Below, in pieces: positions 7,050-59,423 of a stretch of 64,000 nt of DNA. The notes beneath the pieces were generated by a model that ran no database searches, was not told where the DNA came from, and was given only the letters and a program-made list of their open reading frames with translations. The DNA is taken from NCBI GenBank assembly GCA_023231005.1, contig JALNWG010000006.1:43060-107059 (forward strand), read 5' to 3'. A program made the position numbers and the translations under genes. Within the stretch, counting starts at the first letter, position 1; each line of letters opens with the position of its first letter. Source of the stretch: Bacteroidales bacterium (GTDB lineage Bacteria > Bacteroidota > Bacteroidia > Bacteroidales > FEN-979).

Positions 7050-7080
7050 AAATCACCGGCTTCCTTTATTAAAGTAACCG

Positions 7081-35532: not shown

Positions 35533-36048
35533 CTATTCCAATTCAAAACCTGCTTTCTTAATTTGGCCTTCTAAATCAGAGTATTTGATAATTTTGTGGT
35601 CGTACTCAATGTAAACCTGGTTCGATTTTTTATTCAGCTTGAAGTTTTTAACACCCTTGATACTGGATAAAATCTCACTCAGTTGCTTATCCTGCCCTTC
35701 TTTTAATCTGGTAAAACAAATTACCGTTTTATCTTCATCTATTGTAATATCCTTAACAATATCTTTCCCCTGAGCATCCCGAATGATCCGGGCATCCAGA
35801 TAAAGCCCGAACGGCAATTGGGATAATTTCGTTTTCTTATTATTAAATTTAACGGTCATGTTTGTATCGACATTAACCGGCAAACAAGCTGCCGAGCCAT
35901 ACACACAAATGACAATTCTATCGTTACCCATCTTTTCATTTCCGATGGTTCCAGTGATTTTTTCCTGGTTCTGGGAAAAGACAGATGAAAATCCGGTTAA
36001 TGAGACCAGAAATATGACGACGATTATTTTTAATTGATATTTTTTCAT
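35533..36048 (-). CDS. secreted protein with C-terminal HMA-like (ferredoxin-fold) region lacking CxxC
   Basis: Signal peptide. The C-terminal IKGVKNFKLNKKSNQVYIEYDHKIIKYSDLEGQIKKAGFELE has an HMA-like pattern without the metal-binding Cys pair. Confidence 0.4.
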   Translation of the reverse strand: MKKYQLKIIVVIFLVSLTGFSSVFSQNQEKITGTIGNEKMGNDRIVICVYGSAACLPVNVDTNMTVKFNNKKTKLSQLPFGLYLDARIIRDAQGKDIVKDITIDEDKTVICFTRLKEGQDKQLSEILSSIKGVKNFKLNKKSNQVYIEYDHKIIKYSDLEGQIKKAGFELE

Positions 36049-36093
36049 TAGTCAGAATTTTAATAGGTTTAAAAAGATTAACTTACATGATTT

Positions 36094-36480
36094 TTACAAT
36101 GATTTTATCACTGCCTGGAGTTTTGCTGTTATTTCCTGCGCAATGCCTGCCAGGTCAGGATTTTTAATAGCCATCATGGATGCGATGGGATTCACGGCTG
36201 ATATTTCAATACGATCTACAGCAAATTCCTGGACAATGACGTTACATGGCAACATTGTCCCGACTTTGTCTTCGGCCTGAAGCGCTTTGTAGGCATAGGG
36301 TGGATTACAGGCTCCCAGAATCCTGTACCGGCGAAAATCCACATTCAACTTTTCTTTGAGTTTTTCATGGATGTTGATTTCGGAGATAACGCCAAACCCT
36401 TCTTTTTTAAGGGCTTCTGTGGTTTTTTGTACAGCTTCGTCAAACGAAGTTTCCAATGTTTTGCTGAAATAATATTCCAT
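36094..36480 (-). CDS. DUF302 domain protein
   Basis: 128 aa. AVQKTTEALKKEGFGVISEINIHEKLKEKL...YRILGACNP is the DUF302 pattern as I recall it. Confidence 0.7.
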   Translation of the reverse strand: MEYYFSKTLETSFDEAVQKTTEALKKEGFGVISEINIHEKLKEKLNVDFRRYRILGACNPPYAYKALQAEDKVGTMLPCNVIVQEFAVDRIEISAVNPIASMMAIKNPDLAGIAQEITAKLQAVIKSL

Positions 36481-37186: not shown

Positions 37187-39283
37187 TTAAGATGAAATAT
37201 TCTTTTGAACTCTGATAGCATTAAAAACTGCTATCAAAGCAACACCCATATCACCGAAAACTGCCTCCCACATTGTGGCAATACCAAAAATTCCCAGAAC
37301 AATAAAAAGCAGTTTGACGGTCATGGCAAAGAGGATGTTCTGCCAAACGATGATCCGGGTCCGTTTTGCCAGGTCTATCGCCATGGCCACCTTCGATGGT
37401 GAATCGGTCATCAGAACGACATCGGCAGTTTCAATGGCGGCATCCGAGCCAAGTGCTCCCATTGCAATACCAACGTCTGCACGGGCAATCACCGGGGAAT
37501 CATTTATGCCATCGCCGACGAAGGCTACTTTGCCGCCTTTGCTTTCAGACATTAATCTCTCGATATGATTGACTTTATCTTCTGGGAGAAGCTGAGAAAA
37601 GAATTTGCCAATATTTAATTTCCGGGCAAAGGCGGATGCAGCATATTGGTTATCGCCGGTAAGCATGACGGTCTGAATGTTCCTGGCATTCAGCTTTTCG
37701 ATGGCTTCAATCGCATCATCTTTCAGGGAATCCGAAATAATGATATACCCGGCATATCTCGCATCAATGGCAATGTGGACAACCGTTCCTTCAACCTCGC
37801 AAACCGGATGTTGAATGTTCTCTTTATGCAACAGTTTATCATTTCCGGCAAGAACTGTTTTACCGTCAATAATTGCCCGGATGCCAAATCCTGAAATTTC
37901 ATCTACCTGCTTAATCCTGGAGTAGTCGATCTTCCGGTCAAACTTTTCAGTAATTGATTTCGCAATGGGATGGTTGGAACTTGACTCAGCATAGGCGGCG
38001 AATTCCAGTATTTCTGAGGCAGAAAACCCGTTCGATGTAACAATCTCGGAAACTTTGAATTCACCTTTAGTCAGCGTACCTGTCTTGTCGAATACCACGG
38101 TTTTAACCTTCGTCAGTGCATCCAGAAAATTTGACCCTTTGACCAGGATACCTCGTTTTGAAGCGGCCCCTATTCCACCGAAATAGCCCAGCGGAATACT
38201 GATCACCAGGGCACACGGACATGAAATTACAAGCACTACCAAGGCCCGGTAAATCCAGTCGCTAAACGTTTGGCCATTGAATAACAGCGGTGGCAAAATG
38301 GCAAGCATCAATGCCCCAATAACCACCACCGGCGTATAATATTTAGCAAACGTGGTGATGAATTTCTCGGTCTCTGCTTTTTTTGACGAGGCGTTCTCGA
38401 CCATTTCAAGGATTTTTGAAACGGACGATTCACCAAATAATTTAGTCACGCTGATGGTGAGCAAGCCTGTTTGATTTATCATACCGGCCAGCACCGTATC
38501 CTTCTCATTGACCTTTCTTGGAACACTTTCTCCTGTAAGAGCTGAAGTATCCAAAAAAGAGATACCTTCGACGATAACACCGTCAAGTGGAATTTTCTCC
38601 CCGGCTTTAACGATAATGGTATCACCAACCCTGACAGCTTCAGGGTCGACCCTTGAGACCTCTCCATTCACTGACAAATTTGCGTAGTCGGGCTTTATCT
38701 CAAGCAGAGATTTGATGGATCTCCGGGAACGATTCACGGCAATATCCTGGAACAACTCTCCGACAACATAAAAGAGCATGACAGCTACCGCTTCAGGCAT
38801 CTGGTCAATGGCAAATGCTCCAAGGGTTGCCACTACCATCAAAAAATGCTCATTGAAAACCTGGCCTTTGACAATATTTTTTCCAGCCGACACAAGGACC
38901 TTCCATCCGGTGATGAGATATGCTGCTCCAAAAACAAGGTATTCCAGATAATGATACGGAGTATCATGAAGATAGTCCTCAAATATCAACCCTGAAACCA
39001 ACAATAAAAGACCCAGAGAAGCTTTAATAATAGTCTGTCTGTTTTCAGCGAGTTCACTGACTGAAATCATCGCTTTCCCTTTATCATCCGTTTCAATCTC
39101 AACTTCCGGTTCAATCTCTTTGATCCTGGATTTCACCTTATCTATGTCATCCGTATCGATTGTCATGGTTGAATGAACGAAGTTTACATTGACAAACTTC
39201 ACTTCTCCCATTTTGGTTAGACCGTCTTCTATTTTTGCGGCACATGATGCGCAATCAAGGTTCTTCAGTTTGTACTTTTTCAT
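37187..39283 (-). CDS. heavy-metal P-type ATPase, P1B-2 (Zn/Cd/Pb) signature
   Basis: N-terminal HMA CASCAAKIE. TM6 CPCALVISIP (CPCx4SxP). DKTGTLT, SNHP, GDGINDSP. TM7 NILFAMTVK (Nx7K). TM8 GDMG (DxG). Confidence 0.9.
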   Translation of the reverse strand: MKKYKLKNLDCASCAAKIEDGLTKMGEVKFVNVNFVHSTMTIDTDDIDKVKSRIKEIEPEVEIETDDKGKAMISVSELAENRQTIIKASLGLLLLVSGLIFEDYLHDTPYHYLEYLVFGAAYLITGWKVLVSAGKNIVKGQVFNEHFLMVVATLGAFAIDQMPEAVAVMLFYVVGELFQDIAVNRSRRSIKSLLEIKPDYANLSVNGEVSRVDPEAVRVGDTIIVKAGEKIPLDGVIVEGISFLDTSALTGESVPRKVNEKDTVLAGMINQTGLLTISVTKLFGESSVSKILEMVENASSKKAETEKFITTFAKYYTPVVVIGALMLAILPPLLFNGQTFSDWIYRALVVLVISCPCALVISIPLGYFGGIGAASKRGILVKGSNFLDALTKVKTVVFDKTGTLTKGEFKVSEIVTSNGFSASEILEFAAYAESSSNHPIAKSITEKFDRKIDYSRIKQVDEISGFGIRAIIDGKTVLAGNDKLLHKENIQHPVCEVEGTVVHIAIDARYAGYIIISDSLKDDAIEAIEKLNARNIQTVMLTGDNQYAASAFARKLNIGKFFSQLLPEDKVNHIERLMSESKGGKVAFVGDGINDSPVIARADVGIAMGALGSDAAIETADVVLMTDSPSKVAMAIDLAKRTRIIVWQNILFAMTVKLLFIVLGIFGIATMWEAVFGDMGVALIAVFNAIRVQKNISS

Positions 39284-39380: not shown

Positions 39381-39719
39381 TCAATCTTGACCATTCTCCA
39401 TGCCGGTTTTTACGCGATAAACTTTTTCGACAGGACTGACAGTAATTATCCCATCTCCAGGATTTCCTGTTCTTCCGACAGAAGAAATGATACTAACTAT
39501 ATTTTCAACTTCGGTATCCTTACAGATAATTCCAATTACAGCTACTTTACTGTCAGTAATTGAAAAATGCGTTGACAGTGTTGAATCACTGTTTTTAAAG
39601 TTACCTGTGCCTTCGGATAAGTCAACTGTGATATTAGGATGCCCGGCTTCGAGAAGCTGGTTTAAAATATCATTGACTTTGAAGGGTTTAACTATGGCTT
39701 TTACTTCTTTCATATTCAT
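39381..39719 (-). CDS. PII-superfamily protein with divergent T-loop (metal-efflux-linked PII-NG type)
   Basis: MKEVKAIVKPFKV... and GDGIITVSPVEKVYRVKTG parallel GlnB. The T-loop region lacks the GlnB Tyr51 context. Confidence 0.7.
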   Translation of the reverse strand: MNMKEVKAIVKPFKVNDILNQLLEAGHPNITVDLSEGTGNFKNSDSTLSTHFSITDSKVAVIGIICKDTEVENIVSIISSVGRTGNPGDGIITVSPVEKVYRVKTGMENGQD

Positions 39720-39737: not shown

Positions 39738-40925
39738 TTACCCGCAGCTCATTTCACCTGCATTTTTTTTGGCTGAAAGCAGATTATACGCACCCTTGAT
39801 CACGACCTTAGCTGTTTTAATGTCGAGGTCTTTAGGCAATACAACCTCCGTAAAGCCTTCATCCGTGACACCTTTCTGCACTTCAATCATTCGGTATTCT
39901 GTAAACTGCTTTCCATTTTCTTCCTTATTCTTTTCAAAAACAAAAATATAATCCTTGTCATCAAAGCTCACTATTGACTCAGACGGTAAGGCTGTCACTT
40001 CACCTGAGGTAGCTTCAATCATCGCGTTTACATACATGCCCGGAAGAACATTCTTGCAATTACTTTCTACTGTGGCGTAAACTTTATATGTTTTGTCGGC
40101 ATTTACAACTTTTCCTGTCTGGTAAATGATTGCAGCGTGCTGATCTGATTCATTGTTTATAAAGAAACGAATCTTTTGCCCGACTGAAACTTTGTCTGCA
40201 TCTTTTTCAAAAAGTGTGAGTTCGAGATAGAGTTTATTACTATTGACAATCTCGAATAGGATGTCGGTTGGGGCAACATATTTCCCTATATTCACGTTGA
40301 CTGCCTTAATATAACCGGATATTGGGGCAACAACAGCAACAGACCTGGTGATATCGTCTTCATGCAGTTCAGCAGGATTAATGCCGATCATGTTCAGTTT
40401 TTGTTCGAGGGCATGGACCTGAGCTTTCAGACTTTTATAATCGGATGTTACCTGTTGGAGGTTTTTCTGAGAGTATACATCCTCCTTGTATAACTCGGCA
40501 TGTCGCTTATAGTCGGCTTCCGTAAATTCAAGTTTGCTTTTCGCTTCCAGGTAGTTCTGCTGGATGTCAACGAACTCCTGATTTTCCAGAATGGCCAGTG
40601 TCTGTCCTTTGGTCACTGCAATGCCTGGCATCAGGTTGGCGCTTTTGACAAAACCACCAAATGGCATGCATACCGTAGCAAGATTTTCCGGAGATACTCC
40701 GACCAGGCCGGTAACTTTAAGCGTTCCGCTTATGGAACGCATTCCTACCGAACCTGTTTCAATATCGGCTAGTTTGATCTGGTCATCTCTTAACTCCACT
40801 ATATCCTCTGGCAGAACTTCCGCTTCTTTCGTTTCCTGGATGTTTTTTTTTCCTCCATTGCATGAGACCAGGATCGCAATAAATGCTGTCAGAATGAAGG
40901 TTTGTATGAATCGATTTGTTTTCAT
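39738..40925 (-). CDS. RND periplasmic adaptor (CzcB-like membrane fusion protein)
   Basis: 395 aa. Lipobox LVSC, coiled-coil hairpin, barrel-sandwich hybrid motifs. Immediately downstream of the RND pump. Confidence 0.85.
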   Translation of the reverse strand: MKTNRFIQTFILTAFIAILVSCNGGKKNIQETKEAEVLPEDIVELRDDQIKLADIETGSVGMRSISGTLKVTGLVGVSPENLATVCMPFGGFVKSANLMPGIAVTKGQTLAILENQEFVDIQQNYLEAKSKLEFTEADYKRHAELYKEDVYSQKNLQQVTSDYKSLKAQVHALEQKLNMIGINPAELHEDDITRSVAVVAPISGYIKAVNVNIGKYVAPTDILFEIVNSNKLYLELTLFEKDADKVSVGQKIRFFINNESDQHAAIIYQTGKVVNADKTYKVYATVESNCKNVLPGMYVNAMIEATSGEVTALPSESIVSFDDKDYIFVFEKNKEENGKQFTEYRMIEVQKGVTDEGFTEVVLPKDLDIKTAKVVIKGAYNLLSAKKNAGEMSCG

Positions 40926-40937: not shown

Positions 40938-43900
40938 TTAAAAAATTTTTCCGGTTATAAAATCGAGGTTGATAATGGTCTGATTATAGCTGTTGAGCGC
41001 ATCAAGATAATTTTGCTTGATGCCAAGCGCTCTGTTTAGCGTGATGACATAATCGAGGTAATCCAAGGCTCCTGCCTTGTAGCTCTGGCTTGATTGTTCT
41101 ATGATCATGTCCGCTTCAGGAATGGCTTGCTGTTCATAATAATCAACACTGGTACTGAATTTATTGTATTCATCCAGGAGCGAGCTGTAATTACTTTTCA
41201 GTGCAGCCGTAAAATATTCAGCATTCGTACCGGCAACTTTTTCCTGTAATCTGGCAGCCTTTGTTTTCTGTATTCCAGGACCAAACCAGATCGGGATCCC
41301 AATTCCGGCCTGAAGACCAGTAAACCTGTAAGCGGCATCAAAGGTCCGGGGTACCCCATCGATCTCCTGTGTCCCGATAATGGATTGATTATAATATCCG
41401 ATGCTCAGATCGGGCCACATCCGACTGGCTTCAAGCTGCTTTGTTCTTTGAGCCACTTCCACTTGTTGCCGGATGTAGCCAAGAGATGGATTCTCTGCAA
41501 GGACAGTACTATCCTTCGTTTTTGCGAAACCGATCCGATGCAGGACTGAATCCACTGTATAAACAACCTGACTGGTATTAAGCAGGGTTTGCAATTTTCG
41601 GTAATAGATTCCGACATCGATGTTTACCTGGTGGAGCTGATTTTTAATCTCAAAACTTTGCGAACGGGCGGTGATCATTTCCAGCCTATTTGTCTCTCCG
41701 GACTTTGCCCTGAGATCTGCAGCCCGCAAGAAACCAGAGTATAAACTGTCCTGGTAAACGAGTAAACGCTCCCGGGATAACAGATAAGCCAGTTGCCAGT
41801 AAACCTGCTTAACCTGAATGGCAACCTCAAGCCTGGAACTTTTCAGTTGCCAATCAGCGCTGTTGATATTGGCTTGTGACAATTTATTCTGATTAACATA
41901 CACTGTGGGAAATGCAAAAGACTGTGAAATGGTAAAGCTATTGTCTTTCTGATAGGAGTTAAACTGCCCGTATTGTCCTTCCACCACTGTTTTAGGAATA
42001 TCCCAGGAAGCGCCTTTCAGCGCCTTCTGTACATCTTTAGAATAGGCCGTAGATCGTATTGACAGATTGCTGTCAATGGCAATTTTTATGGCTTCCTGCA
42101 GATTGACTTTTCTTGGATTTTGAGCCTTAGCTGAGATAAAGGCTGAAGGCAGAAAGAAAAGTAACAAGAGCATCAAAGCAGTTACTGATTTCCTTTTAAA
42201 GGAAAACCTGAACCTGCGGGAGAATAGGATATAAAAGACCGGCAGAACCACTAGCGTGAGAAAAGTGGCACTGATCAGCCCGCCAATCACAACCGTCGCA
42301 AGTGGTTTTTGAACTTCAGCCCCTGCCGAGGTCGAGAGAGCCATTGGAAGAAATCCGAGCGAAGCCACGGCAGCAGTCATTATAACCGGTCGTAACCGTG
42401 AATGGAGACCTTTCAAAACACGTTCAGTAATATCCGTTATACCCTCCTTTTCCAGCCGGTTAAATTCTGCGATCAACACGATGCCATTCAGTACCGCAAC
42501 TCCGAAGAGTGCAATAAAACCGACACCGGCAGAAATGGAAAAGTTCATATCCCGTAACCACAACGCAAAGACACCTCCGATGGCCGACATAGGCACTGCG
42601 GTAAAAATGATGAAAGTTTGTTTAACGGAGTGAAATGTAAAAAACAGCAGGACGAATATCAGAAGCAATGCCACTGGGACTGCAACCGCAAGCCTGCTTT
42701 TTGCAGCTTCAAGGTTCTTGAACTGTCCTCCATAAGTAACATAATACCCTGTAGGCAGAATAACCTGTTTATCAATATTTGCAGTGACATCATTGATCAC
42801 ACTTTGAACATCACGGTTTCTTACATTAAACCCTATGGTGATGCGCCGTTTGGTGTCTTCCCGGGAAACCTGGGCGGGACCTGACTTAATGGTTATATCT
42901 GCCACCTGTTCCAGTGGCAATTGCGATCCATTGGGCAGGCCGACTGAAATATTCTTGACATCGTTCAGACTTTGCCTGAAATCCTTGTCAAAACGGACGA
43001 CCAGCCCGAATCTTTTTTCTCCGTCAAAAACCACTCCTGCCTGACTTCCTGCAAATGCTGCACGCAGCACCTTGTTGGCATCATCCACTGAAAGGCCATA
43101 CTGGGCCAACCTGTCACGGTTAAAATCAACCTGGACCTGAGCCAACCCGGTTACCTTCTCAACATTAATGTCCTCAACACCTTCGATCTGCTGAATGATC
43201 TTCTCTAAATCTTCGGCCTTTTCTGCCAACGTTTTAAGGTCATCACCAAATATTTTAATGGCAATATCCTGCTTCGAACCCGTCATCAGTTCGTTGAACC
43301 GCATTTGGATAGGTTGCTGGAATTCAAATTTGACGCCTGCAAGCGGAACCAGCTTTTCTTCCATCTTTTCAACCAGTTCTTCACGGGTTTTTGCAGATGT
43401 CCATTCACTTTTATTTTTCAGGGTGATTACATAATCCCCGGTTTCCATCGGAGTCGGGTCTGTAGGAATTTCTCCTGCTCCAATTTTGCAGACAGTATGT
43501 TTAATTTCCGGGAAATTATTCAAAAGGATCTTATTTGCTTTGATCACGGTCTCTACTGTATTGGATAGTGATCCTCCCTGAAGCGTAATGACACCGGCAG
43601 CCAAGTCCCCTTCTTCGAGCTGAGGAATAAACTCCCCTCCAAGCCGGCTGAACATAAACAGGCTGAAAAGGAAAAGCGCAATGGATAGAGAAACCACAAT
43701 AAACTTATGTTTCAGAGCTAAAGCAATCGTAGGATTAAAAATACTATGGAACCAGTCCATCAAACGGTTGGAAAAATTCCGTTTGTGCTCGGTCTTTTTG
43801 CTAAGGAACAGGGCAGATGCCATCGGAACATAGGTCAGTGACAGAATGGCTGCGCCAAGGAGGGCAAATGCCACAACCTGTGCCATGGGCCGAAACATTT

Positions 43901-45323
43901 TACCTTCGATTCCGATGAGCGCCATGATCGGAAGATAAACGATCAGGATGATGATTTGTCCGAAGGTTGCCGAACTCATCATTCGTTTGGCGGATTCAAA
44001 GACATTTTCATCCATTTGCACCTGAGAAAGTTTTTTAACACCAACATGATGATGGTTGCTCAGGGATATTCGGTGAACAACGCTTTCGACAATGATCACC
44101 GCACCATCCACAATGAGGCCGAAGTCGATCGCTCCAAGGCTCATCAGATTTCCCGAAACACCAAAAAAATTCATCATGGAGATTGCAAACAGCATGGATA
44201 GCGGAATCACTGAGGCTACGATCAATCCGGCTCTGATATTCCCAAGCAGTAAAACCAGAACGAAGATGACGATAAGGGCGCCCTCGATCAGGTTTTGAGA
44301 AACCGTCCCGATTGCCCTGTCAACGAGGTCTGAACGATTCAGGAAAGGTTCAATCTTAACCCCTTTTGGCAGGGACTTCTGAATAGAAACGATGCGGTTT
44401 TCAACATTGTCGATCACCTCATGGGCATTCGCTCCTTTGAGCATCATAACAACCCCGCCAACAGCTTCACTGGTATCAACCACAAAAGCACCGTAACGGG
44501 TGGCGCTTCCGAATTGCACGGTCGCAACATCCCTTATTAAAACAGGGATCCCTGACGGATTATTTCTGACTACGATTTTTTCAATATCGCTTAGTGTTTT
44601 GACAAGACCAATACCTCGAATGAAATAGGCTGTTGGCTTTTTGTCTATGTAAGCGCTGCCAGTGTTCTCGTTGTTCTTCTCAAGGGCTTCAAAAATATCC
44701 GTCAGGGTCAGGTTCATCCCCCTGAGCCGTTCAGGGTTGACAGCGATCTCATATTGCTTGACGAAACCTCCATAACTGTTTATGTCAGCAACACCGGAAG
44801 TGCCAAGCATTTGACGCCGTACGACCCAATCCTCGAGCGTACGAAGTTCCATCGGGGTGTATTTCTTCTCCAATCCTTTGTCGACAACCAGTCGGTACTG
44901 ATAAATCTCCCCGAGTCCGGTACTGATCGGGGCCAGTTCAATTTTAGCCAATCCGGCGGGAATAACGTCCTCAGCTTCTTTAAGCCGTTCGCTAAGTTGC
45001 TGCCTGGCCCAATAGATATTGACATCATCTTTAAAAACGATGGTGACGACCGACAATCCCAGCCGTGAAATTGACCGGAGTTCAATAATGTCGGGGATAT
45101 TGGCGACAGCAACTTCAATAGGCGCTGTTATGAAACTTTCGACCTCCTGCACTGCAAGTGAAGGCGCTAATGAGATGACCTGCACCTGGTTATTCGTTAT
45201 ATCGGGTATTGCATCTATGGGAAGTCGCATCAGGGAATAGGTTCCCCAACCGACCAGTGCCAGAACAAACAGCCCGATAATGAATTTGTTCTTTACTGAA
45301 AAATGAATAATACGTTCTATCAT
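40938..45323 (-). CDS. CzcA-type heavy-metal RND pump fused in frame to a TolC/CzcC-type outer-membrane factor
   Basis: 1461 aa. Residues 1 to ~1040 are RND (GAIDFGLIVDGAVIIVE proton-relay motif). Residues 1043-1067, KRKSVTALMLLLLFFLPSAFISAKA, are signal-peptide-like. Residues 1068-1461 are OMF-like. Confidence 0.85.
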   Translation of the reverse strand: MIERIIHFSVKNKFIIGLFVLALVGWGTYSLMRLPIDAIPDITNNQVQVISLAPSLAVQEVESFITAPIEVAVANIPDIIELRSISRLGLSVVTIVFKDDVNIYWARQQLSERLKEAEDVIPAGLAKIELAPISTGLGEIYQYRLVVDKGLEKKYTPMELRTLEDWVVRRQMLGTSGVADINSYGGFVKQYEIAVNPERLRGMNLTLTDIFEALEKNNENTGSAYIDKKPTAYFIRGIGLVKTLSDIEKIVVRNNPSGIPVLIRDVATVQFGSATRYGAFVVDTSEAVGGVVMMLKGANAHEVIDNVENRIVSIQKSLPKGVKIEPFLNRSDLVDRAIGTVSQNLIEGALIVIFVLVLLLGNIRAGLIVASVIPLSMLFAISMMNFFGVSGNLMSLGAIDFGLIVDGAVIIVESVVHRISLSNHHHVGVKKLSQVQMDENVFESAKRMMSSATFGQIIILIVYLPIMALIGIEGKMFRPMAQVVAFALLGAAILSLTYVPMASALFLSKKTEHKRNFSNRLMDWFHSIFNPTIALALKHKFIVVSLSIALFLFSLFMFSRLGGEFIPQLEEGDLAAGVITLQGGSLSNTVETVIKANKILLNNFPEIKHTVCKIGAGEIPTDPTPMETGDYVITLKNKSEWTSAKTREELVEKMEEKLVPLAGVKFEFQQPIQMRFNELMTGSKQDIAIKIFGDDLKTLAEKAEDLEKIIQQIEGVEDINVEKVTGLAQVQVDFNRDRLAQYGLSVDDANKVLRAAFAGSQAGVVFDGEKRFGLVVRFDKDFRQSLNDVKNISVGLPNGSQLPLEQVADITIKSGPAQVSREDTKRRITIGFNVRNRDVQSVINDVTANIDKQVILPTGYYVTYGGQFKNLEAAKSRLAVAVPVALLLIFVLLFFTFHSVKQTFIIFTAVPMSAIGGVFALWLRDMNFSISAGVGFIALFGVAVLNGIVLIAEFNRLEKEGITDITERVLKGLHSRLRPVIMTAAVASLGFLPMALSTSAGAEVQKPLATVVIGGLISATFLTLVVLPVFYILFSRRFRFSFKRKSVTALMLLLLFFLPSAFISAKAQNPRKVNLQEAIKIAIDSNLSIRSTAYSKDVQKALKGASWDIPKTVVEGQYGQFNSYQKDNSFTISQSFAFPTVYVNQNKLSQANINSADWQLKSSRLEVAIQVKQVYWQLAYLLSRERLLVYQDSLYSGFLRAADLRAKSGETNRLEMITARSQSFEIKNQLHQVNIDVGIYYRKLQTLLNTSQVVYTVDSVLHRIGFAKTKDSTVLAENPSLGYIRQQVEVAQRTKQLEASRMWPDLSIGYYNQSIIGTQEIDGVPRTFDAAYRFTGLQAGIGIPIWFGPGIQKTKAARLQEKVAGTNAEYFTAALKSNYSSLLDEYNKFSTSVDYYEQQAIPEADMIIEQSSQSYKAGALDYLDYVITLNRALGIKQNYLDALNSYNQTIINLDFITGKIF

Positions 45324-45570: not shown

Positions 45571-45933
45571 TCAGAGCGTCCTTTGATGATACAGACACTG
45601 TGTATCATTTGCCGTAAAAGGCAGGAATCCGGATTTAGGAGGGATCAGGAAATCAAAAAGGTCAAGACTATTAAAGTCACGGTGATTTTCATAATAATTG
45701 AAGGCAATGGCTTCTGCCGGAAAAAGTAATGACGTCCCGGAAACATAAAAATTGGCCTGGCAACAGGAACAGGTACAGAAAGGGGAACAATGGTCAACAT
45801 CCTCTTGATGGTCATTTGCCGACTTCTGGGAAAGTTCAACTTTCTGTACTGAATAATGCCTGACTACATCAACGCAGGGAATGCCGCTGAGCAGAATAAT
45901 ATAAAATGACAGAAAAACAGCTAAAGCCTTCAT
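45571..45933 (-). CDS. small membrane-anchored Cys-rich protein (CSPFCxCxCC motif; DUF6660-like by recollection)
   Basis: Start at 45933 (MKALAVFLSFYIILLSGIPC). Motif HCSPFCTCSCCQ, later LIPP. Lies between the Fur gene and the pump. Confidence 0.55.
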   Translation of the reverse strand: MKALAVFLSFYIILLSGIPCVDVVRHYSVQKVELSQKSANDHQEDVDHCSPFCTCSCCQANFYVSGTSLLFPAEAIAFNYYENHRDFNSLDLFDFLIPPKSGFLPFTANDTQCLYHQRTL

Positions 45934-45981
45934 AAATTTTGCGATGCACAAAAGTAAATGAAAATTTATGCAATTAAGTTG

Positions 45982-45989
45982 CAAAGTTA
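45982..45989 (-). promoter_or_regulatory. -7 box TAACTTTG with adjacent palindrome GCAAnnnnnTTGC (45970-45982)
   Basis: Exact TAnnTTTG on the minus strand, overlapping the Fur stop codon. Lies 49 nt upstream of the ATG at 45933. Confidence 0.35.
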
Positions 45990-46400
45990 TCTGCGGCAGT
46001 TTGCGCAGATCCCTTTGACTACCATATTGATACTTTGGAGATCAAAATTAACAGGAAGGGAGACTGAAGGGACAGGGATTTCGTTTAGACAATAGGTTTT
46101 CTGACACATCGTGCAGAAGAAGTGAACGTGAAGCTCTGCGGGGTTGCATTGACAAGTATCTGTACACATGGCATACTTTACAGATCCCGAGCCATCATCG
46201 ATACTATGTATGATCTTATTTTCTTCAAAGGTCTTCAGGGTGCGGTAAAGGGTGACTTTATCTGCTTTTTCAAACTTTTGTTCCAGGTCTGAGAGACTGA
46301 TCGCAGTGGTCTGTTTGATTAAGACATCCAGCACTAACTCTCGCATAGCGGTAGGCTTGACATTCTTACTGTTGAGTTTATCATCTATCGGGATTTTCAT
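45987..46400 (-). CDS. Fur-family metalloregulator (Zur-like context)
   Basis: 137 aa. Winged-helix PTAMRELVLDVL...VTLYRTLKTFEE, HVHFFC, and two CxxC pairs (CTMC, CANC). Confidence 0.8.
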   Translation of the reverse strand: MKIPIDDKLNSKNVKPTAMRELVLDVLIKQTTAISLSDLEQKFEKADKVTLYRTLKTFEENKIIHSIDDGSGSVKYAMCTDTCQCNPAELHVHFFCTMCQKTYCLNEIPVPSVSLPVNFDLQSINMVVKGICANCRR

Positions 46401-52071: not shown

Positions 52072-52419
52072 TCATTTTTTTACTGGCCGGTCATACTGGC
52101 AGCATCCTAGCAATGCATTGTAAGTTTTATCAGTGGCTTTGGCATTATCAGTATCGTGTCCGACCTTTGCAACTGCTTCTTCGATCTTTATGGCTGTGGT
52201 CTTGGTGTCATCAAAGGTCACAGTTAACATTAAATCTTCTGAATCCCACGTTGCTTTGGTGACGCCTTTTACGGAATTGGCAGCCTTCTCGATCCGGGTT
52301 TTACACATGCCGCAATTACCGTAAACTTTGATTTTTTCGGTTTTCGCAACATTGGCAAAAATTGAGGTCATGCTGAAAAACAGCAAACCTACTACTAACA
52401 TCATTGATTTTGTTCTCAT
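52072..52419 (-). CDS. periplasmic heavy-metal-associated (HMA) domain protein
   Basis: Signal peptide. YGNCGMCKTRIEKAANSVKGVT (CxxC). C-terminal DKTYNALLGCCQY. Paralogue of the C-terminal domain of the adjacent adaptor. Confidence 0.75.
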   Translation of the reverse strand: MRTKSMMLVVGLLFFSMTSIFANVAKTEKIKVYGNCGMCKTRIEKAANSVKGVTKATWDSEDLMLTVTFDDTKTTAIKIEEAVAKVGHDTDNAKATDKTYNALLGCCQYDRPVKK

Positions 52420-52448: not shown

Positions 52449-54107
52449 TTACTTTCTGTAATGACAGCACTCAGGTAAACTCTCGTATGTTTTGTCATCA
52501 GCTTTAAACTTTTCAGTATCATGTCCTGCTCTGGCAATGGCCTTCTGTATAGCGCTCAGATCGGTTTTCATGGAGTCAAATTCCACCTTGATTTTGTGAG
52601 TTTTTGTATCCCAGATGGCCGATGTTACGCCACCAACCGATTTAGCAGCCTTTTCTATCCGTTCCTTACACAAGTCGCAATTCCCGGATACGGTAAACAT
52701 TTCATTCTCTATCATAGGTTTCATTGATTTATCCATTGTTTCTTTAGTTGGCTGTGTTGATTTGTCCGCCGGGTCAGGGTTCCCCTTCGACCTTTTATCC
52801 CCGGGCATATCCATTCCAGGCATAGATGAAACCTGGCCACCTGAGGGATTCATCATACTCGGCTTGCCTTCAAGCTGGGCGGCTGCATCCACGCTGAACG
52901 TCCCCTGGGTTACAATTTCCTCTCCTTCGGTCAGACCATCCGCTACAATATAACTGCTGCCCAGCATGGGACCAAGACCAATTTCCCTGATTTTGAATAT
53001 GGGTTCGTCCGTTCCGGGCAGTTTTACATAAACAATGGAGCGTTTGCCGGTCCATAATACGGCTGAACGGGGAATAACCATTTTATCCTTAAATTCGGCC
53101 ATGTTGGCCTTGACAACCCCGGTGGCAAACATCTCCGGTTTCAATTTTCCTGAGCGGTTGTTAATCTCAACCCTTACCTTTGAAACACGGGTTATCGGAT
53201 CAACCACTGGATCAATAAAGATGATTTTTCCCGAATAAGTCTCCCCGGGCATAGCCTGGACAGTAAAATCAATTTTATCGCCGGATTTCAGAAATGGCAG
53301 GTCACTCTCGTAGGCATCAAACATAACCCATAAGGAGGTAAGATCAACAAGATCATATAAGGAAGTACCCTGCGAGACATAATCACCATTGTTCACCCGC
53401 CTTGAAGTAACGATTCCTGAAATGGTTGAAACAACTTCAAATTTGGTTTGAACCTTTCCGGAATTCTCTATGCCGGCAATCTGACTATCTGAAAGCTTCC
53501 AAAGCTGCAGTTTTTCCTTTGCTGCTTCATATATCTCGGGTTGGGATTGTTTTGTCTTCGCAGCTTCGAGCAATTCCTGTTGAGCAGTAACCAATTCCGG
53601 TGAGTAAATTAATGCCAGGGTTTGGCCCTTTTTAACCGTCTCACCTGTAAAATTCACCAGTAGTTTGTCGATACGTCCGGGGTATTGTGCAACCTGGCTT
53701 TGCAACAACCTTTCATCGGCCTGTAGCTTGCCATACAGCCTGACTTCTTTAACAGATGATTGGCGCGAAACCACCGAAGTGAGGACATTGGCGAGTTGGG
53801 CAGCTTCCTTGGTTAAATGAATAGCATTGGGGTCAACATCCGCTACATTCTGGTTTAGCGGGATCAGGTCCATGCCACAGATGGGGCATTTTCCCGGGGC
53901 ATCTCTGCGGATCTGAGGGTGCATCGCACAAGTCCAGATTGTTGTCTTTCCATCCTGTACGGCATGTTCATGCTTTTCCTCTACTTTTCCTGAGGAATGA
54001 AAAAACAGCCAGCCAATAAACAGACCTCCAATAGCAAACAAACTGAAATGGAAATATCTGTTGAACAAAATTTTCTTCATCAATATTGAACTCTTCGTGG
54101 TATTCAT
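52449..54107 (-). CDS. CusB-like RND adaptor with N-terminal CPxHPx-type metal-binding domain and C-terminal HMA domain
   Basis: 552 aa. TM, then WTCAMHPQIRRDAPGKCPICGMDL (53859-53939). MFP core. Met/Pro-rich linker MMNPSGGQVSSMPGMDMPG. C-terminal GNCDLCKERIEKAA...CCHY (52452-52697). Confidence 0.85.
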   Translation of the reverse strand: MNTTKSSILMKKILFNRYFHFSLFAIGGLFIGWLFFHSSGKVEEKHEHAVQDGKTTIWTCAMHPQIRRDAPGKCPICGMDLIPLNQNVADVDPNAIHLTKEAAQLANVLTSVVSRQSSVKEVRLYGKLQADERLLQSQVAQYPGRIDKLLVNFTGETVKKGQTLALIYSPELVTAQQELLEAAKTKQSQPEIYEAAKEKLQLWKLSDSQIAGIENSGKVQTKFEVVSTISGIVTSRRVNNGDYVSQGTSLYDLVDLTSLWVMFDAYESDLPFLKSGDKIDFTVQAMPGETYSGKIIFIDPVVDPITRVSKVRVEINNRSGKLKPEMFATGVVKANMAEFKDKMVIPRSAVLWTGKRSIVYVKLPGTDEPIFKIREIGLGPMLGSSYIVADGLTEGEEIVTQGTFSVDAAAQLEGKPSMMNPSGGQVSSMPGMDMPGDKRSKGNPDPADKSTQPTKETMDKSMKPMIENEMFTVSGNCDLCKERIEKAAKSVGGVTSAIWDTKTHKIKVEFDSMKTDLSAIQKAIARAGHDTEKFKADDKTYESLPECCHYRK

Positions 54108-54111
54108 AATA

Positions 54112-55569
54112 TCAATTTTCTTGAATGGGTGAAGATGCCATCAAACGTTGTAACCAGGAAATTGCCGTGTTGTAATCTACAACAGCTTCAATCTTTTTAA
54201 ATTCATAATCAAGCAACTGCTGCCTGACCCGTAAAATATCAGTGAGCGGGACAACAGATGTGGAAAGGCCTTTTAACATGATGTCAAGTGTTTTGCCGGC
54301 CAGATCACTCTGACTATCGTATAACTTCACCCTGCGTTGCCCGTCTTTAAATAATTGAACCGCTTCGTAATAGTTGGTTTGCAGAGAATTGGCCGTTGCT
54401 TGGTAATTTTCCTTATTGGCAGATTTCAATAACTCAGCCTCGATTTTCATGGCATTGTACTTATTCCGGTATATGGGCAAGGTAACCGTTGCCATCGGCA
54501 TGATCATATCCTTACCATTCATTGACGATGTGGACATCGCGCTTTTACTGATCACAGAATAATTCAATCCCAGCCCCATCATCGGATACCCCATTTTGGT
54601 AACCATTTTTTGGCGTGCATCCAGCGATTGCTGCTCGTATTGCAGCATCCCCAGCATGGGGTTATGTGAAAGCATGCTGTCTGTTACCGCAAGAAGTGAT
54701 AAGCCAAGTGAATCAGGAATAAGCTGATCAGGTAATTGAACAGGTGAAGCTGAAGGTCGGTTCAAATAAGCATTGAAACGGGCTTCGATTGTGTTTCGCT
54801 GGGTCTTCAACAGTTCAATATTGTTTTCAAGTTCACCAATTTCGATCTGAATCCTGTATAAATCGGCCAAGCCTGATCCACCGGATGAGCTGCCCATGGA
54901 GCTGCTTTGCATGGCAGATGGTGACTGAGCTGAACTTGCTCCCGACTGGCCACCGGAATTTCCACCCATGGTCTGCATTCCTTGTGGATTTGCGGAACTG
55001 CTTTGTGATGAGCCCGCCGGATTGGATGTTCCTGATGCAGGACTACTGTTTCCTCCTGCCGGAGCTGCTTTAAATTTCACCAGGGTGAGCCGCTCAATCG
55101 TATGCAGGATATCAAGGTTCTTTTCAGAAATCCGAATATCCTGCTGAACTTTCTGCAACTCGTACCAGCTCTTTTTCACATCAAAAAACACCTGCAATTT
55201 GGCATCCCTGAATGATTCAAATTTTGCTTTTGCCATAAGACTCATCTCATCCTTTGCGGATTTCAGCGTACCGAACCAGGGAAACATCTGCATCAGTTTT
55301 ATATCTGCGTTCTGTCTACCGTCAACGAGTTCCATGGGTTGAATAAATACTCCGACGTTTAATTCAGGATCCGGTAACGCTCCAACCTGCGGAACTTTTT
55401 GAAGTGCAGCCTGATATTCATAGAACTTCTGTTGAACAGTCGGGTTGTTCTTTGCTGATATGACCAGGTATTGCAACAGTGAGTCCGGTTGTTTCTGGCT
55501 GCTGGCAACAAACCAACCACAGGCCCCGATGAAAGCCAGCAATATGTTTTTATAAGCTGTGATTTTCAT
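54112..55569 (-). CDS. TolC-family outer-membrane factor with Ser/Gly/Gln/Met low-complexity insertion
   Basis: 485 aa. Two OEP-like repeats. Residues ~168-233 are low-complexity (AAPAGGNSSPASG...MQTMGGNSGG...AMQSSSMGSSSGGSG). Confidence 0.85.
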   Translation of the reverse strand: MKITAYKNILLAFIGACGWFVASSQKQPDSLLQYLVISAKNNPTVQQKFYEYQAALQKVPQVGALPDPELNVGVFIQPMELVDGRQNADIKLMQMFPWFGTLKSAKDEMSLMAKAKFESFRDAKLQVFFDVKKSWYELQKVQQDIRISEKNLDILHTIERLTLVKFKAAPAGGNSSPASGTSNPAGSSQSSSANPQGMQTMGGNSGGQSGASSAQSPSAMQSSSMGSSSGGSGLADLYRIQIEIGELENNIELLKTQRNTIEARFNAYLNRPSASPVQLPDQLIPDSLGLSLLAVTDSMLSHNPMLGMLQYEQQSLDARQKMVTKMGYPMMGLGLNYSVISKSAMSTSSMNGKDMIMPMATVTLPIYRNKYNAMKIEAELLKSANKENYQATANSLQTNYYEAVQLFKDGQRRVKLYDSQSDLAGKTLDIMLKGLSTSVVPLTDILRVRQQLLDYEFKKIEAVVDYNTAISWLQRLMASSPIQEN

Positions 55570-55571
55570 CT

Positions 55572-58500
55572 CTATTGGGTATTACTTGTTTGAATTGCTT
55601 TTTTATTGGCGCGCAATACTGCCCTTTCTCTCCACATCGCCTGGAACATCGGGACCACAAAGACGGTCATCACCTGGATGATCATACCACCAAAGGTTGG
55701 TATCGCCATGGGGACCATAATATCAGCCCCCTTCCCGGTTGATGTTAAAACAGGTAAGAGCGCAATCACCGCAACCGCGGTGGTCATCATGGCAGGGCGG
55801 ACACGTTTCAGCCCGGCAGCAACCACCGCTTCACGAACTTCGTGGACGGTCGTTGGATGTCGTTGTTCAAATACCTGGTGTATGTATGTTCCCATAATCA
55901 CCCCGTCATTGGTAGCAATGCCAAAAAGGGCAATAAAACCGACCCAGACTGCGACACTCAGGTTGATGGTATGCATCTGGAACATATCCCGCAGGTTAAT
56001 TCCGGCAACGGAAAAGTTCATAAACCAACCCTGTCCATAGAGCCAGAGCATTATAAATCCACCGGCAAACGCCACAAAAACACCTGAAAAATGAATGAAG
56101 GCGGCGGTCACCGTACGGAACTGGAAGTACAACAGCAGCAATATAAGGATCAGACTGATGGGGATTACGATGGAGAGCCTTTTTGTGGCCCTGATCTGCT
56201 GTTCATAATTCCCGGCAAATTTGTATGAAACCCCGGGAGGCAGTTTTATACCGCCGGTGCTTATTTTCGCCTGGATGATTTTTGCGGCATCTTCAACTAC
56301 ATCAACTTCGGCTTTACCTTCCTGCATATCGAAGATCACATATCCAACCAGGAAGGTATTTTCACTACGAATCATTTGCGCACCCCTGGTGTAGTCAATG
56401 TCGGCGATCTCACCCAGCGGAACCTGCACGCCATTCATAGCAGGGATCAGAATGCGTTTAATATCATCTGGATTATCCCTTAGTTCACGGGCATAACGGA
56501 CCCTGATCGGGAATCTTTCACGTCCTTCAACTGAGTTGCTGAGCGACATGCCTCCAACTGCCACCTGCAGAATTTCCTGCACGTCGCTGATGCTCATTCC
56601 GTAGCGGGCCATCGCTTCACGGTTCAGCTTAATTTCAAGATAAGGAGCACCAACTGCACGGTCGTAGAATACAGATGTGGCTTTTACAGAAGGGACATCT
56701 TTCAAAACTTTCTCGAACATCATACCTGCCTGTTCGATCGATTCCAGGTCGGGCCCATAGACCTTCAGTCCCATGGGTGCCCGCATCCCGGTGGAGAGCA
56801 TGACCAACCGTGTTTCAATGGGCTGTAATTTCGGTGCTGATGTCAAACCCGGAATGTTGGTCACTTTGACGATTTCATTCCAGATATCGTTTGGTTTTTT
56901 AATCTGCGGGCGCCATTGACGGAAAAATTCGCCTTTTTCGTCCGGAATAAGACTGTCTGCCGGAATTATTCTGAATGTCTCTTTTTCAGGATTGTACTTT
57001 GATCCATTTTTTAACCGGTAGTAATCATTCCTGTCCGTTTTGAACCGCATCCTGTGTCCGTCTTCATCAAGAATATATTCTGACCGGTAGTTTATGGTAT
57101 TCTCGAACATCTGAACAGGTGCGGGATCCAATGCTGAATTCACCCGGCCCCATTTGCCGACGGCAATTTCAACTTCAGGAATGACCGAAAGCCGTTTATC
57201 AAGCGTTTCGATGTACTCAAGGTTTTTTTCAATGCTCGAATGAGGCATACTGGTGGGCATCAGCAGGTATGAACCTTCATTAAGTGAAGGCATGAATTCT
57301 TTACCGGTACCGGGAAATGTTTTCACCGCACCCTGCCATACCGCTGTCTGTCTCACACTCTTCCAGCCGATCTTCTCCAAACCATCCGGGACAATTCCGA
57401 AAATTTTATCAATGCCCTGCCATGCCAGGATGCCGAAAAGCAAAGTAAAAGCAGGAAGCATAAGGAATTTCCATTTATGGATCAAACACCACCGAAGGAT
57501 GGGTTCATAAAAATGTACCATGGTCATCAAGGCACCAAGAATGACAGTCACGATACCGGCCACAAAAATGAAGTTGACAACAGAACTGTTGTGAGCGCCC
57601 AATGGAAGCCATTCGATGGAAAGGTACCAGACAGCTACCAAAACAGTGATGGCAATGTTGATGTAGTTGGTTATTGCACTGCTTTTTTCTTTCCACAGAT
57701 GTCCGGATAAATTATTGAATCCGATGGCAACCAAAGCCAAAGCCGGCCATGTGTGCCAGAAAATGACAAACAGGACCCCTGCACCAATTAGAATTCCGTT
57801 CCAGATTTTGCGAATTTTGGTCTTGTCAAAACGTATATTAAAAAAAATGTGCACCAGTGTTGGCAAAACAATGATGCCAAGTAGAAAAGCCGACAGAAGG
57901 GCAAACGTTTTGGTAAAGGCCAATGGTCGGAAAAGTTTTCCTTCGGCAGCTTCCATGGCAAATACAGGTAAGAAACTTACTATGGTAGTGGCAATCGAAG
58001 TAACCACGGCAGCTCTCACTTCTGTAGTCGCCTGGTAGATGACATCCAGCAATTTCTTTCCCCGTATCCCCTTATTCTCCGGCATCTCCAGGTGTCGAAG
58101 GATATTCTCTACATCCACAATACCAATGTCAACCATAACGCCAATAGCAATTGCAATTCCTGACAAGGCGACAATGTTGGCATCAACCCCGAAGAAGCGC
58201 ATCAGGATAAAGGTCATCAGCACTCCCAAAGGCAATAATCCGGCGACAATGAATGAAGCCCGCAGGTTCATGACAAGCACAATAATGACGATGATGCTGA
58301 TAAGGATTTCATGGGACAGGGCATATTCAAGGGTGCCAATGGTTTCCTTGATCAACCCGGTCCTGTCGTAGAAAGGAACAATGCTCACTTTTGAGATACT
58401 GCCATCCGGCAAGGTCTTTTGAGGCAACCCTGCTTCAATTTCCTTTATCTTCTGTTTCACATTGCCGATGACCTCCATCGGATTGGAACCGTAACGGGCA

Positions 58501-59423
58501 ACAACAACCGCCCCCACGGCCTCTGATCCGGCTTTGTCAAGTCCCCCGCGGCGTGTAGCCGGTCCAAATGTAGTATGGCCAATATCCTTTATTCTGACCG
58601 GAACATTGTTCCGAACGGCGACCACGGAGTTTTCAAGATCATCGAGGTTCTTGATATAACCAAGTCCTCTGATGATATACTCCACATTGTTCAATTCAAT
58701 GGTTTCAGCACCGATGTCGAGATTGCTTTTACGAACGGCATTCATCACATCCATGACTGAAACACTGAATGCTTTTAATGCTTCAGGGTTAAGATCGACC
58801 TGGTACTCCTTTACAAAACCACCCACCGATGCCACTTCTGAGACCCCTTCCGCAGTTGCCAGGCCATATTTTACATAAAAATCCTGGATCGTGCGTAGCT
58901 CCGCCGGATCCCATCCGCCATTTGGCTTCCCGGTTTTGGGATCCCGCCCTTCAAGTGTGTACCAGAATATCTGACCCAGCGCCGTTGCATCAGGCCCTAA
59001 CGTTGGCTGCACGCCTGCTGGCAAGGTCCCGGATGGCAATGAATTGAGTTTTTCCAGGATACGGGAGCGACTCCAATAGAATTCAACTTTATCTTTAAAG
59101 ATGATATAGATGAACGACATGCCAAACATGGAGGTACTTCGAACCGTACTCACCCCGGGAATTCCCAACAAGGCAGTGGTTAATGGATAGGTCACCTGGT
59201 CCTGGATATCTTTAGGAGAGCGACCCATCCATTCGGTAGCAACTATTTGCTGGTTGTCACCAATGTCAGGGATCGCATCCACTGGTACCGGGTCGCGTGG
59301 AATAAAACCGGTTTGCCAGTTAAACGGTGCAAACACAATCCCACCGACAATAAAGGCGATCAGAAAAATGAAAGTGATCAGCCGGTTATCCAGGAAATAC
59401 TTTACAAGTCGGTTAAAAAACAT
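55572..59423 (-). CDS. CusA-type Cu(I)/Ag(I) RND pump, long form
   Basis: 1283 aa. IAIAIGVMVDIGIVDVEN parallels the CusA TM4 motif. YLLMPT, VQMFEN and LVMLSTG align, by recollection, with the CusA Met573/623/672 contexts. Extra hydrophobic block at residues ~538-640. Confidence 0.88.
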   Translation of the reverse strand: MFFNRLVKYFLDNRLITFIFLIAFIVGGIVFAPFNWQTGFIPRDPVPVDAIPDIGDNQQIVATEWMGRSPKDIQDQVTYPLTTALLGIPGVSTVRSTSMFGMSFIYIIFKDKVEFYWSRSRILEKLNSLPSGTLPAGVQPTLGPDATALGQIFWYTLEGRDPKTGKPNGGWDPAELRTIQDFYVKYGLATAEGVSEVASVGGFVKEYQVDLNPEALKAFSVSVMDVMNAVRKSNLDIGAETIELNNVEYIIRGLGYIKNLDDLENSVVAVRNNVPVRIKDIGHTTFGPATRRGGLDKAGSEAVGAVVVARYGSNPMEVIGNVKQKIKEIEAGLPQKTLPDGSISKVSIVPFYDRTGLIKETIGTLEYALSHEILISIIVIIVLVMNLRASFIVAGLLPLGVLMTFILMRFFGVDANIVALSGIAIAIGVMVDIGIVDVENILRHLEMPENKGIRGKKLLDVIYQATTEVRAAVVTSIATTIVSFLPVFAMEAAEGKLFRPLAFTKTFALLSAFLLGIIVLPTLVHIFFNIRFDKTKIRKIWNGILIGAGVLFVIFWHTWPALALVAIGFNNLSGHLWKEKSSAITNYINIAITVLVAVWYLSIEWLPLGAHNSSVVNFIFVAGIVTVILGALMTMVHFYEPILRWCLIHKWKFLMLPAFTLLFGILAWQGIDKIFGIVPDGLEKIGWKSVRQTAVWQGAVKTFPGTGKEFMPSLNEGSYLLMPTSMPHSSIEKNLEYIETLDKRLSVIPEVEIAVGKWGRVNSALDPAPVQMFENTINYRSEYILDEDGHRMRFKTDRNDYYRLKNGSKYNPEKETFRIIPADSLIPDEKGEFFRQWRPQIKKPNDIWNEIVKVTNIPGLTSAPKLQPIETRLVMLSTGMRAPMGLKVYGPDLESIEQAGMMFEKVLKDVPSVKATSVFYDRAVGAPYLEIKLNREAMARYGMSISDVQEILQVAVGGMSLSNSVEGRERFPIRVRYARELRDNPDDIKRILIPAMNGVQVPLGEIADIDYTRGAQMIRSENTFLVGYVIFDMQEGKAEVDVVEDAAKIIQAKISTGGIKLPPGVSYKFAGNYEQQIRATKRLSIVIPISLILILLLLYFQFRTVTAAFIHFSGVFVAFAGGFIMLWLYGQGWFMNFSVAGINLRDMFQMHTINLSVAVWVGFIALFGIATNDGVIMGTYIHQVFEQRHPTTVHEVREAVVAAGLKRVRPAMMTTAVAVIALLPVLTSTGKGADIMVPMAIPTFGGMIIQVMTVFVVPMFQAMWRERAVLRANKKAIQTSNTQ

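Follow-up and report, generated by a model that had tools for sequence, protein, structure and literature searches.

Tripartite efflux pumps are usually described as three separately made proteins, and how pump and channel come to be present in matching amounts is an open practical question. In the closest described systems, CzcCBA, ZneCAB and CusCBA of Proteobacteria, the inner-membrane pump of the resistance–nodulation–division (RND) superfamily and the outer-membrane factor (OMF) are encoded by separate genes, and the OMF carries its own N-terminal signal (a lipoprotein signal in CusC). Here we describe a gene in which a pump and an OMF of these families share one open reading frame (ORF). 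It lies in a stretch of 64,000 nucleotides, below called the window, from a Bacteroidales bacterium (GTDB FEN-979; assembly GCA_023231005.1, contig JALNWG010000006.1, positions 43,060 to 107,059, forward strand). The components are those of the proteobacterial systems, namely a CusA/CzcA pump, an OMF of the TolC/CusC fold and a CzcB-type adaptor, and the DFG..DGA..VE motif in the fourth transmembrane segment (TM4) is shared as well. The arrangement is different: pump and OMF form a single ORF, the order is pump–OMF–adaptor, and the signal of the OMF is internal, of the signal peptidase I type and without a lipobox. We propose that the gene probably encodes a polyprotein precursor of pump and OMF, which would be resolved by signal peptidase I after export. 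The component families are known, but their union is unusual and, as far as we have searched, uncharacterised. The available part of a 2021 Chemical Reviews article on tripartite pumps does not mention a pump–OMF fusion, and we found no paper describing one in a search of open-access full texts, whose scope did not extend to older subscription-journal reviews of heavy-metal efflux (HME). The sources that hold the fused proteins name them only "CzcA" or "CusA/CzcA family RND transporter."

A preliminary description, made from the DNA letters, had reported a single ORF of 1461 residues here. Translation of 40938..45323 bears this out, with the residue and nucleotide coordinates correct, and gives a precursor of 161.9 kDa (computed). 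Residues 1043–1067 read KRKSVTALMLLLLFFLPSAFISAKA, and the chain continues from residue 1068 as QNPRKVNLQEAIKIA; the order across the junction is ...LPVFYILF-SRRFRFSFKRKS-VTALMLLLLFFLPSAFISAKA|QNPRKVNLQEAIKIA.... That the N-terminal part is a complete 12-TM pump, as had been claimed, is agreed on by domain models, hydropathy and alignment to solved structures. Pfam ACR_tran spans residues 5–1034 (E 7e-281) and NCBIfam TIGR00914 (CusA/CzcA) residues 1–1037, at 1174.9 bits against a cut-off of 701.45. The closest solved structures are ZneA (4k0e), with which the pump half is colinear end to end (1–1037 versus 1–1018 of 1045, E 2e-200), and CusA (3k07), which also aligns end to end (E 5e-183). 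A hydropathy scan finds 12 hydrophobic segments before residue 1034, a 13th centred on 1054–1059, and none later. DFG..DGA..VEN is the charged TM4 motif of divalent-cation HME pumps; DFGLIVDGAVIIVES of the present protein we take to be the divalent-cation (CzcA/ZneA-like) form of this proton-relay motif. The families point to tripartite heavy-metal efflux, with a substrate probably of the Zn/Co/Cd type; the genes nearby, for a Fur-family regulator, a P1B ATPase and HMA proteins, are a metal context.

The remainder of the chain was said to be a full OMF, and this holds as well. Pfam OEP (PF02321) matches two stretches reaching residue 1458 (E 3e-29; 102.8 bits, cut-off 22). Residues 982–1461 were modelled with AlphaFold2 on a 30-sequence alignment (A1). 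The model has a mean predicted local distance difference test score (pLDDT) of 85.7, which rises above 90 across the OMF part, and in it short helices, strand pairs and helices of about 70 residues follow one another in the canonical order, repeated twice. A Foldseek search with the modelled OMF returned CmeC, CusC, SilC, TolC, OprM, OprN, VceC and MtrE over about 410–420 columns (E 1e-16 to 1e-13; template modelling scores 0.65–0.73, and about 0.66–0.76 with normalisation to the target for CmeC, CusC, SilC, TolC and OprM). The assignment is based on Pfam and on structure prediction with Foldseek because sequence searches against the PDB failed to match this part: the OMF alone gave no match at E 0.01, and a profile of alignment A1 matched the pump end only, among the 60 of 92 matches listed. 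No solved chain containing both pump and OMF parts occurs among the matches listed. The model of the TolC type I secretion subfamily, TIGR01844, scores below threshold (26.7 bits against a cut-off of 225.15). There is no N-terminal signal on a separate polypeptide; the signal of this OMF lies inside the chain, after pump residue 1034.

The simplest objection to such a gene is that it is an artefact or a pseudogene, in which a lost stop codon or an error of assembly or sequencing has joined adjacent czcA and czcC genes. The window itself shows how small the step would be: in its second metal RND system the pump and OMF genes are adjacent and in the same order, with only the pump's TAG and 2 nucleotides before the OMF, so that a simple mutation could create a fusion of this kind. 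An arrangement like that of the second system could, by analogy, be the state from which loss of a stop codon produced the fused gene. Against an artefact stands the finding that, at 31–100% identity, the identical architecture recurs in independent assemblies numbering in the hundreds, in over 70 species, and on finished plasmids of cultured strains. The 120 best 90%-identity clusters (78–100% identical) all contain proteins of about 1462 residues. An exhaustive search of 50%-identity representatives with residues 901–1461 gave 1116 matches at E ≤1e-30; of the best 150 of these (31–74% identical), 138 span the junction, 28 of them at full length (1433–1463 residues), and 12 contain the OMF only, about six of the latter being apparently genuine separate genes that carry a signal peptide of their own. 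When one genome per GTDB species was scanned, 596 relatives came up, and the best 80 of the 596 were analysed as loci. In about 72 of these 80, a frame of at least 1438 codons runs through both domains without interruption. The 80 loci include Bacteroidales, Marinilabiliales, Chitinophagales and Saprospiraceae, as well as Flavobacteriales (Chryseobacterium, Flavobacterium, Myroides, Aquimarina, Aequorivita), Cytophagales (Pontibacter, Hymenobacter, Dyadobacter, Spirosoma, Algoriphagus) and Sphingobacteriales (Pedobacter, Mucilaginibacter, Sphingobacterium). The fused form prevails in the survey of homologues that the preliminary description had called for, and split relatives are rare.

Plasmids give the same answer. 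In PLSDB, the fused form is present in 44 plasmid records; cultured Adhaeribacter, Pontibacter, Hymenobacter and Chondrinema are the hosts of the 15 listed, each of which is annotated as one coding sequence. Of the other 626 matching records, most match just a portion of the query, and Proteobacteria (Ralstonia, Acinetobacter) dominate the matches. On a finished plasmid of Adhaeribacter swui KCTC 52873, RefSeq has a single coding sequence of 4395 nucleotides for the fused gene (HUW51_RS00500), and the module comprises DUF6660, the fused gene, the adaptor, Fur and the P-type ATPase, as in the window. Conservation across the phylum and finished plasmids with a single coding sequence exclude the lost stop or sequencing error that would have undone the original observation; the comparative data refute it for practical purposes, and we assign an artefact a negligible probability. 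Comparison of the sequences indicates instead that the fusion is real, ancient and under selection.

Several features of this distribution may be noted in their own right. Hymenobacter, Adhaeribacter, Pontibacter and Chondrinema carry the whole module on plasmids, and several Hymenobacter plasmids match the query in two or three places, which points to a mobile metal-resistance cassette. A single contig of a Tangfeifania sp. (CAYHQN010000073.1, 21.7 kb) contains two fused paralogues, L001 and L042, which share 68% and 36% identity with the query part, so that the fused family has duplicated and diverged after fusion. Outside Bacteroidota, the fused form occurs in a Melioribacteraceae metagenome-assembled genome (MAG; L068) and in a MAG labelled Gemmatimonadota (L039), with Gly/Ala at –1 and Gln at +1 of the presumed cut site. 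These two copies could be due to horizontal transfer or mis-binning; the Q-rule, discussed below, is reported not to be valid for the whole Fibrobacteres–Chlorobi–Bacteroidetes group (PMC5837995).

Between the two domains come a basic linker, a 13th hydrophobic segment and the ending SAKA|Q, which take in the segment of residues 1043–1067 that had been called signal-peptide-like: the hydrophobic core occupies about residues 1049–1063, SAKA is the c-region, and the signal begins at about residue 1043 of 1461 and not at an N-terminus. Alignments of both close and distant homologues show strong conservation at the end of TM12 and in the first helix of the OMF, with a hypervariable segment between them. 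We compiled statistics of the junction from 75 fused loci, each from a different species. The junction has 17 different lengths (28–46 residues) among them, none of which breaks the frame or brings in a stop. For the net charge of the linker the median is +3. For the uncharged run, c-region included, it is 18 residues, with a maximum of 32, and as a sequence property the length of this run is in the range of signal peptides rather than that of membrane anchors. At the sites, found with the pattern [AGSCP]Q, position –1 is Ala in 58 loci, Gly in 11 and Ser in 6, position –3 is small or aliphatic in 64, and position +1 is Gln in all 75 and Cys in none. A pair [AGS]Q occurs in 75 of 75 junction windows, versus 34.4 expected after shuffling, and in 119 of 119 close homologues, where it stands 10 residues before an AIQxALD motif in 111. 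To judge from these alignments, the junction evolves like a signal peptide, with free sequence and fixed grammar.

This grammar has a known counterpart. According to the Q-rule, most signal peptidase I substrates of Bacteroidetes expose an N-terminal Gln, which is cyclised to pyroglutamate; the mean share of predicted substrates with Gln at +1 is 71%, and in more than 99% of the examined species it exceeds 48% (PMC5837995; Q-rule signal peptides of Bacteroidetes are also treated in PMC10653852). The supplements of the former paper contain no entry for an efflux protein (PMC5837995). Other signal peptides in the window end in LHA|Q, AFG|Q, VFS|Q, ASS|Q and GMA|Q. In cleavable Sec signal peptides, a positively charged n-region is followed by a hydrophobic core of some 7–15 residues and a polar c-region. 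The junction matches Bacteroidetes signal peptides in its basic n-region and short core as well as in the small residue before and the Gln after the predicted cut; it differs from them in being internal, behind a polytopic membrane protein of 1034 residues. The suggestion that the segment looks cleavable is thus strengthened by the –1 Ala/Gly/Ser and +1 Gln in 75 of 75 species, and signal peptidase cleavage at the junction is, on this evidence, very likely. Going beyond the preliminary description, the sequence also indicates that the OMF is of the non-lipoprotein type and that its predicted cut site obeys the Q-rule: the lipobox of NodT/CusC-type lipoprotein OMFs is absent, +1 being Gln and not Cys here and in the 75 loci.

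A coherent topology had been proposed for the fused chain, and it holds, with the 13th hydrophobic segment following the 12 of the pump. The pump part would insert into the inner membrane with 12 helices and a cytoplasmic C-terminus. Since both ends of an RND pump face the cytoplasm, the basic linker SRRFRFSFKRKS would remain inside, and the short hydrophobic segment behind it would enter the membrane N-in/C-out, as a 13th membrane segment and internal Sec signal that drives export of the 394-residue OMF part through Sec. Signal peptidase I would then cut after SAKA, between Ala1067 and Gln1068, and the new N-terminal Gln would probably become pyroglutamate by cyclisation, as it does in the majority of proteins exported by Bacteroidetes. 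The released OMF of 44.6 kDa would go to the outer membrane and trimerise, and the 117.3-kDa pump would retain the signal segment as an extra C-terminal helix and thus have 13 membrane segments. The lipoprotein adaptor from the downstream gene would bridge the two. Pump and OMF each function as a trimer, so that a single precursor would provide them in an exact 1:1 ratio. A weaker possibility is that assembly of the complex is helped by the 13th helix left on the pump or by the moment at which cleavage occurs.

Alternatively, the 13th segment could be an uncleaved membrane anchor, with the OMF-like domain staying on the pump and working from the inner membrane. The uncharged run could span the membrane in some homologues, and the AlphaFold2 model has the segment as a helix. 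That helix is modelled at low confidence, however, and the c-region FISAKA is the least confident of all (pLDDT below 50), which fits an exposed, extended cleavage region. A plain anchor would also give no reason for conservation of a small –1 residue and a +1 Gln in every one of the 75 loci. Further, the domain has the β-barrel strands of an outer-membrane channel in full, the adaptor that follows is of the normal type and has a gene to itself, and only about 5–7 residues separate the segment, and with it the predicted cut site, from the OMF fold. The last point matters for geometry. PMC8277102 places the N-terminus of an OMF in the equatorial domain, far from the inner membrane, half-way up a periplasmic barrel of 100 Å that lies below the 40-Å β-barrel and whose tip meets the adaptor. 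With the fold starting some 7 residues past the site and the N-terminus at the equator, an anchor in the inner membrane would keep the uncut protein from getting to the outer membrane. An uncut chain cannot sit in both membranes, and a canonical pump therefore needs release. We consider a permanent anchor very unlikely.

A second alternative is that two products are mainly made, the OMF arising from an internal start at its signal peptide and the continuity of the frame being incidental or reflecting minor read-through. In about half of the close homologues the n-region contains a Met (..KRKSM-KTLS..) that resembles a vestigial OMF start. In the window, TTG-ATG stands in frame at residues 1050–1051. 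Split relatives, moreover, show that the OMF can be made alone. In a Cyclobacteriaceae MAG (L070), the pump ends ...ENRSFKRIQS* and the OMF (6162..7454) begins with its own Met, as MTTAIFTSLKRWLIVLFIAAQLPVAA|Q, in another frame within the linker. Two further loci have stand-alone OMFs with their own Met, L061 (5992..7251, MAQRILFIIFLLAVQRAYA|Q), where the OMF is placed after the adaptor gene and the gene order differs, and L050 (1162..2466, MKIKLIALFILVLGAGINSFA|QQ), and two 50%-identity representatives (P0226 and P0251) are split OMFs with the same segment as N-terminal signal peptide. Split OMFs thus start with the same kind of segment, which indicates that it serves as a normal N-terminal signal peptide wherever pump and OMF have a gene each. 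Three other candidates for split forms (L016, L043 and L079) were rejected, as they appear to be MAG frameshifts, away from the junction or, in L043, near the end of TM12.

A census of start codons at the DNA level argues against internal initiation in the fused genes. The linker has an in-frame ATG in 29 of the 75 species, where 29.2 are expected from the codon usage of the same ORFs, and an ATG, GTG or TTG in 49, where 55.7 are expected; 26 species have none. Start codons are thus present at chance frequency and absent in about a third of the species, which rejects internal initiation as the general route to the OMF. In the window, the codon at the usual Met position is GTA, which is not a start codon, and initiation at Met1051 would yield a signal peptide without a basic n-region. 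Nor would 17 junction lengths all be maintained in frame and free of stops if the two frames were independent. Taken together, we regard an internally initiated OMF as the main product as quite unlikely.

The proposal of a precursor resolved by signal peptidase I also has points that weigh against it. First, cleavage itself is something that we infer from sequence. Second, a signal peptide behind 12 transmembrane helices is unusual, being atypical for bacteria. Third, the in-frame TTG-ATG (Leu1050–Met1051) lies inside the hydrophobic core, and a minor, independently initiated OMF product from it is possible in the window sequence. Fourth, position –3 is less canonical (Met, Phe, Pro or Tyr) in 11 of the 75 homologues. 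Finally, the count of +1 Gln is partly built in by the pattern used to find the sites, a bias that the shuffling control and the fixed register of the alignment limit. A broader version of the proposal would hold for the whole phylum: pump and channel would obligatorily be made as one precursor of about 160 kDa, cut at an internal Q-rule signal, with 1:1 stoichiometry and a 13-TM pump. We judge this generalisation about equally likely to stand or to fall.

Table 1. Features of the fused gene, its module and the second metal RND system (window positions; all on the minus strand)
Feature	Position	Strand	Remarks
Fused gene (RND pump + internal signal peptide + OMF)	40938..45323	-	one ATG-initiated ORF, 1461 residues + stop
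Heavy-metal RND pump, CusA/CzcA family, complete, 12 TM	42222..45323 (residues 1-1034)	-	Pfam, NCBIfam, hydropathy, alignment
TM4 motif DFGLIVDGAVIIVES	44082..44126 (residues 400-414)	-	from sequence; DFG..DGA..VEN form, last residue S, not N
Basic linker / n-region SRRFRFSFKRKS, predicted cytoplasmic	42186..42221 (residues 1035-1046)	-	six K/R, no D/E
Hydrophobic core + c-region VTALMLLLLFFLPSAFISAKA, predicted 13th membrane segment	42123..42185 (residues 1047-1067)	-	hydropathy, alignments; -3 Ala, -1 Ala
Predicted signal peptidase I site Ala1067|Gln1068	42120..42125	-	register in homologues and Q-rule +1 Gln
OMF protomer, TolC/CusC fold, 44.6 kDa, without lipobox	40941..42122 (residues 1068-1461)	-	Pfam, AlphaFold2 model, Foldseek
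Periplasmic adaptor (membrane fusion protein), CzcB-type, lipoprotein-type N-terminus (..ILVSC)	39738..40925	-	12 nt downstream of fused gene
P-II-like small protein	39381..39719	-	Pfam P-II, E 1e-14; between adaptor and P-type ATPase, same direction
Heavy-metal P1B-type ATPase with HMA domain	37187..39283	-	downstream in 25 related loci
DUF6660 small Cys/His-rich membrane protein (..HQEDVDHCSPFCTCSCCQ..)	45571..45984	-	immediately upstream of fused gene
Fur-family regulator	45987..46400	-	upstream of module
Second system, CusA-like pump, 1283 residues, TM4 AIAIGVMVDIGIVDVEN	55572..59423	-	about 170 extra residues between homologous halves
Second system, separate OMF	54112..55569	-	pump TAG + 2 nt before OMF
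Second system, CusB-like adaptor with C-terminal HMA/CopZ-like domain	52449..54107	-	

The genes around the fused ORF (Table 1) complete the system. Among the best 80 related loci, the adaptor gene is directly downstream in 72, and with it in this position two genes encode a full tripartite system. The DUF6660 gene is upstream in 17 of the 80, and also in L081 (2601..2915), which is the Adhaeribacter swui plasmid; its product may be a metal-binding partner or sensor of the module. The P-II-like gene is found downstream in only four related loci (L011, L020, L076 and L077). A scan for consensus promoters and terminators gave nothing above background and no notable internal promoter. The second metal RND system (52449..59423, minus strand) is split and has the same gene order as the fused module. 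Just upstream of it is a gene (59481..60584, minus strand) for a Por_Secre_tail protein (type IX sorting), whose signal peptide is the one ending in GMA|Q. Small metal-related genes flank the operons at 35533..36480 and 52072..52419 (minus strand); the flanking genes encode a DUF302 protein, a protein that combines an HMA domain with a signal peptide, and an exported protein whose match to HMA_2 is weak (21.1 bits, where Pfam requires 30). Overall, the window appears to be a metal-resistance island.

The fusion has practical consequences for annotation. Databases show the domain architecture, but the annotation conceals it. As the fused proteins are labelled as pumps only, genome surveys undercount OMFs in Bacteroidota, and metal-resistance modules with the fused gene may be scored as lacking an outer-membrane component. 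In biological terms, supply of pump and channel from one precursor appears to be a solution used throughout the phylum, in gut, oral, soil and marine Bacteroidota and on plasmids. If the proposal is right, the gene would be a natural case of an internal cleavable signal peptide behind a 12-helix membrane protein, and of a bacterial polyprotein supplying two different membranes. Its one cut site would offer a simple genetic handle on OMF biogenesis and on pump assembly. The fusion would surprise many efflux specialists; it does not overturn the accepted working of tripartite pumps.

Three known systems, besides the proteobacterial metal pumps with which we began, bear comparison. Within the RND superfamily itself, SecDF of Thermus thermophilus is a natural single-chain fusion, as PMC8277102 describes. 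There, as here, partners that are separate in other bacteria are naturally joined; the difference is that the two halves of SecDF are both inner-membrane parts that stay joined, with no cleavable internal signal and no outer-membrane partner. Closer in mechanism are viral polyproteins, such as those of flaviviruses and the glycoprotein precursors of bunyaviruses, which host signal peptidase cuts at internal signal sequences. In these, internal signal and anchor segments alternate the topology of the chain and signal peptidase resolves one translation product into several, as would be the case here, but they are systems of the eukaryotic endoplasmic reticulum and have no homology to the fused pump–OMF. 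The nearest bacterial precedent in mechanism, to our knowledge, is the FbcH cytochrome b-c1 precursor of Bradyrhizobium japonicum, in which leader peptidase reportedly cuts at an internal signal peptide and so parts a polytopic inner-membrane protein from a periplasm-facing partner made in the same precursor. FbcH is no relative of the present protein, and its two products are said to remain at the inner membrane, whereas the part that would be released from the fused pump is a β-barrel channel of the outer membrane.

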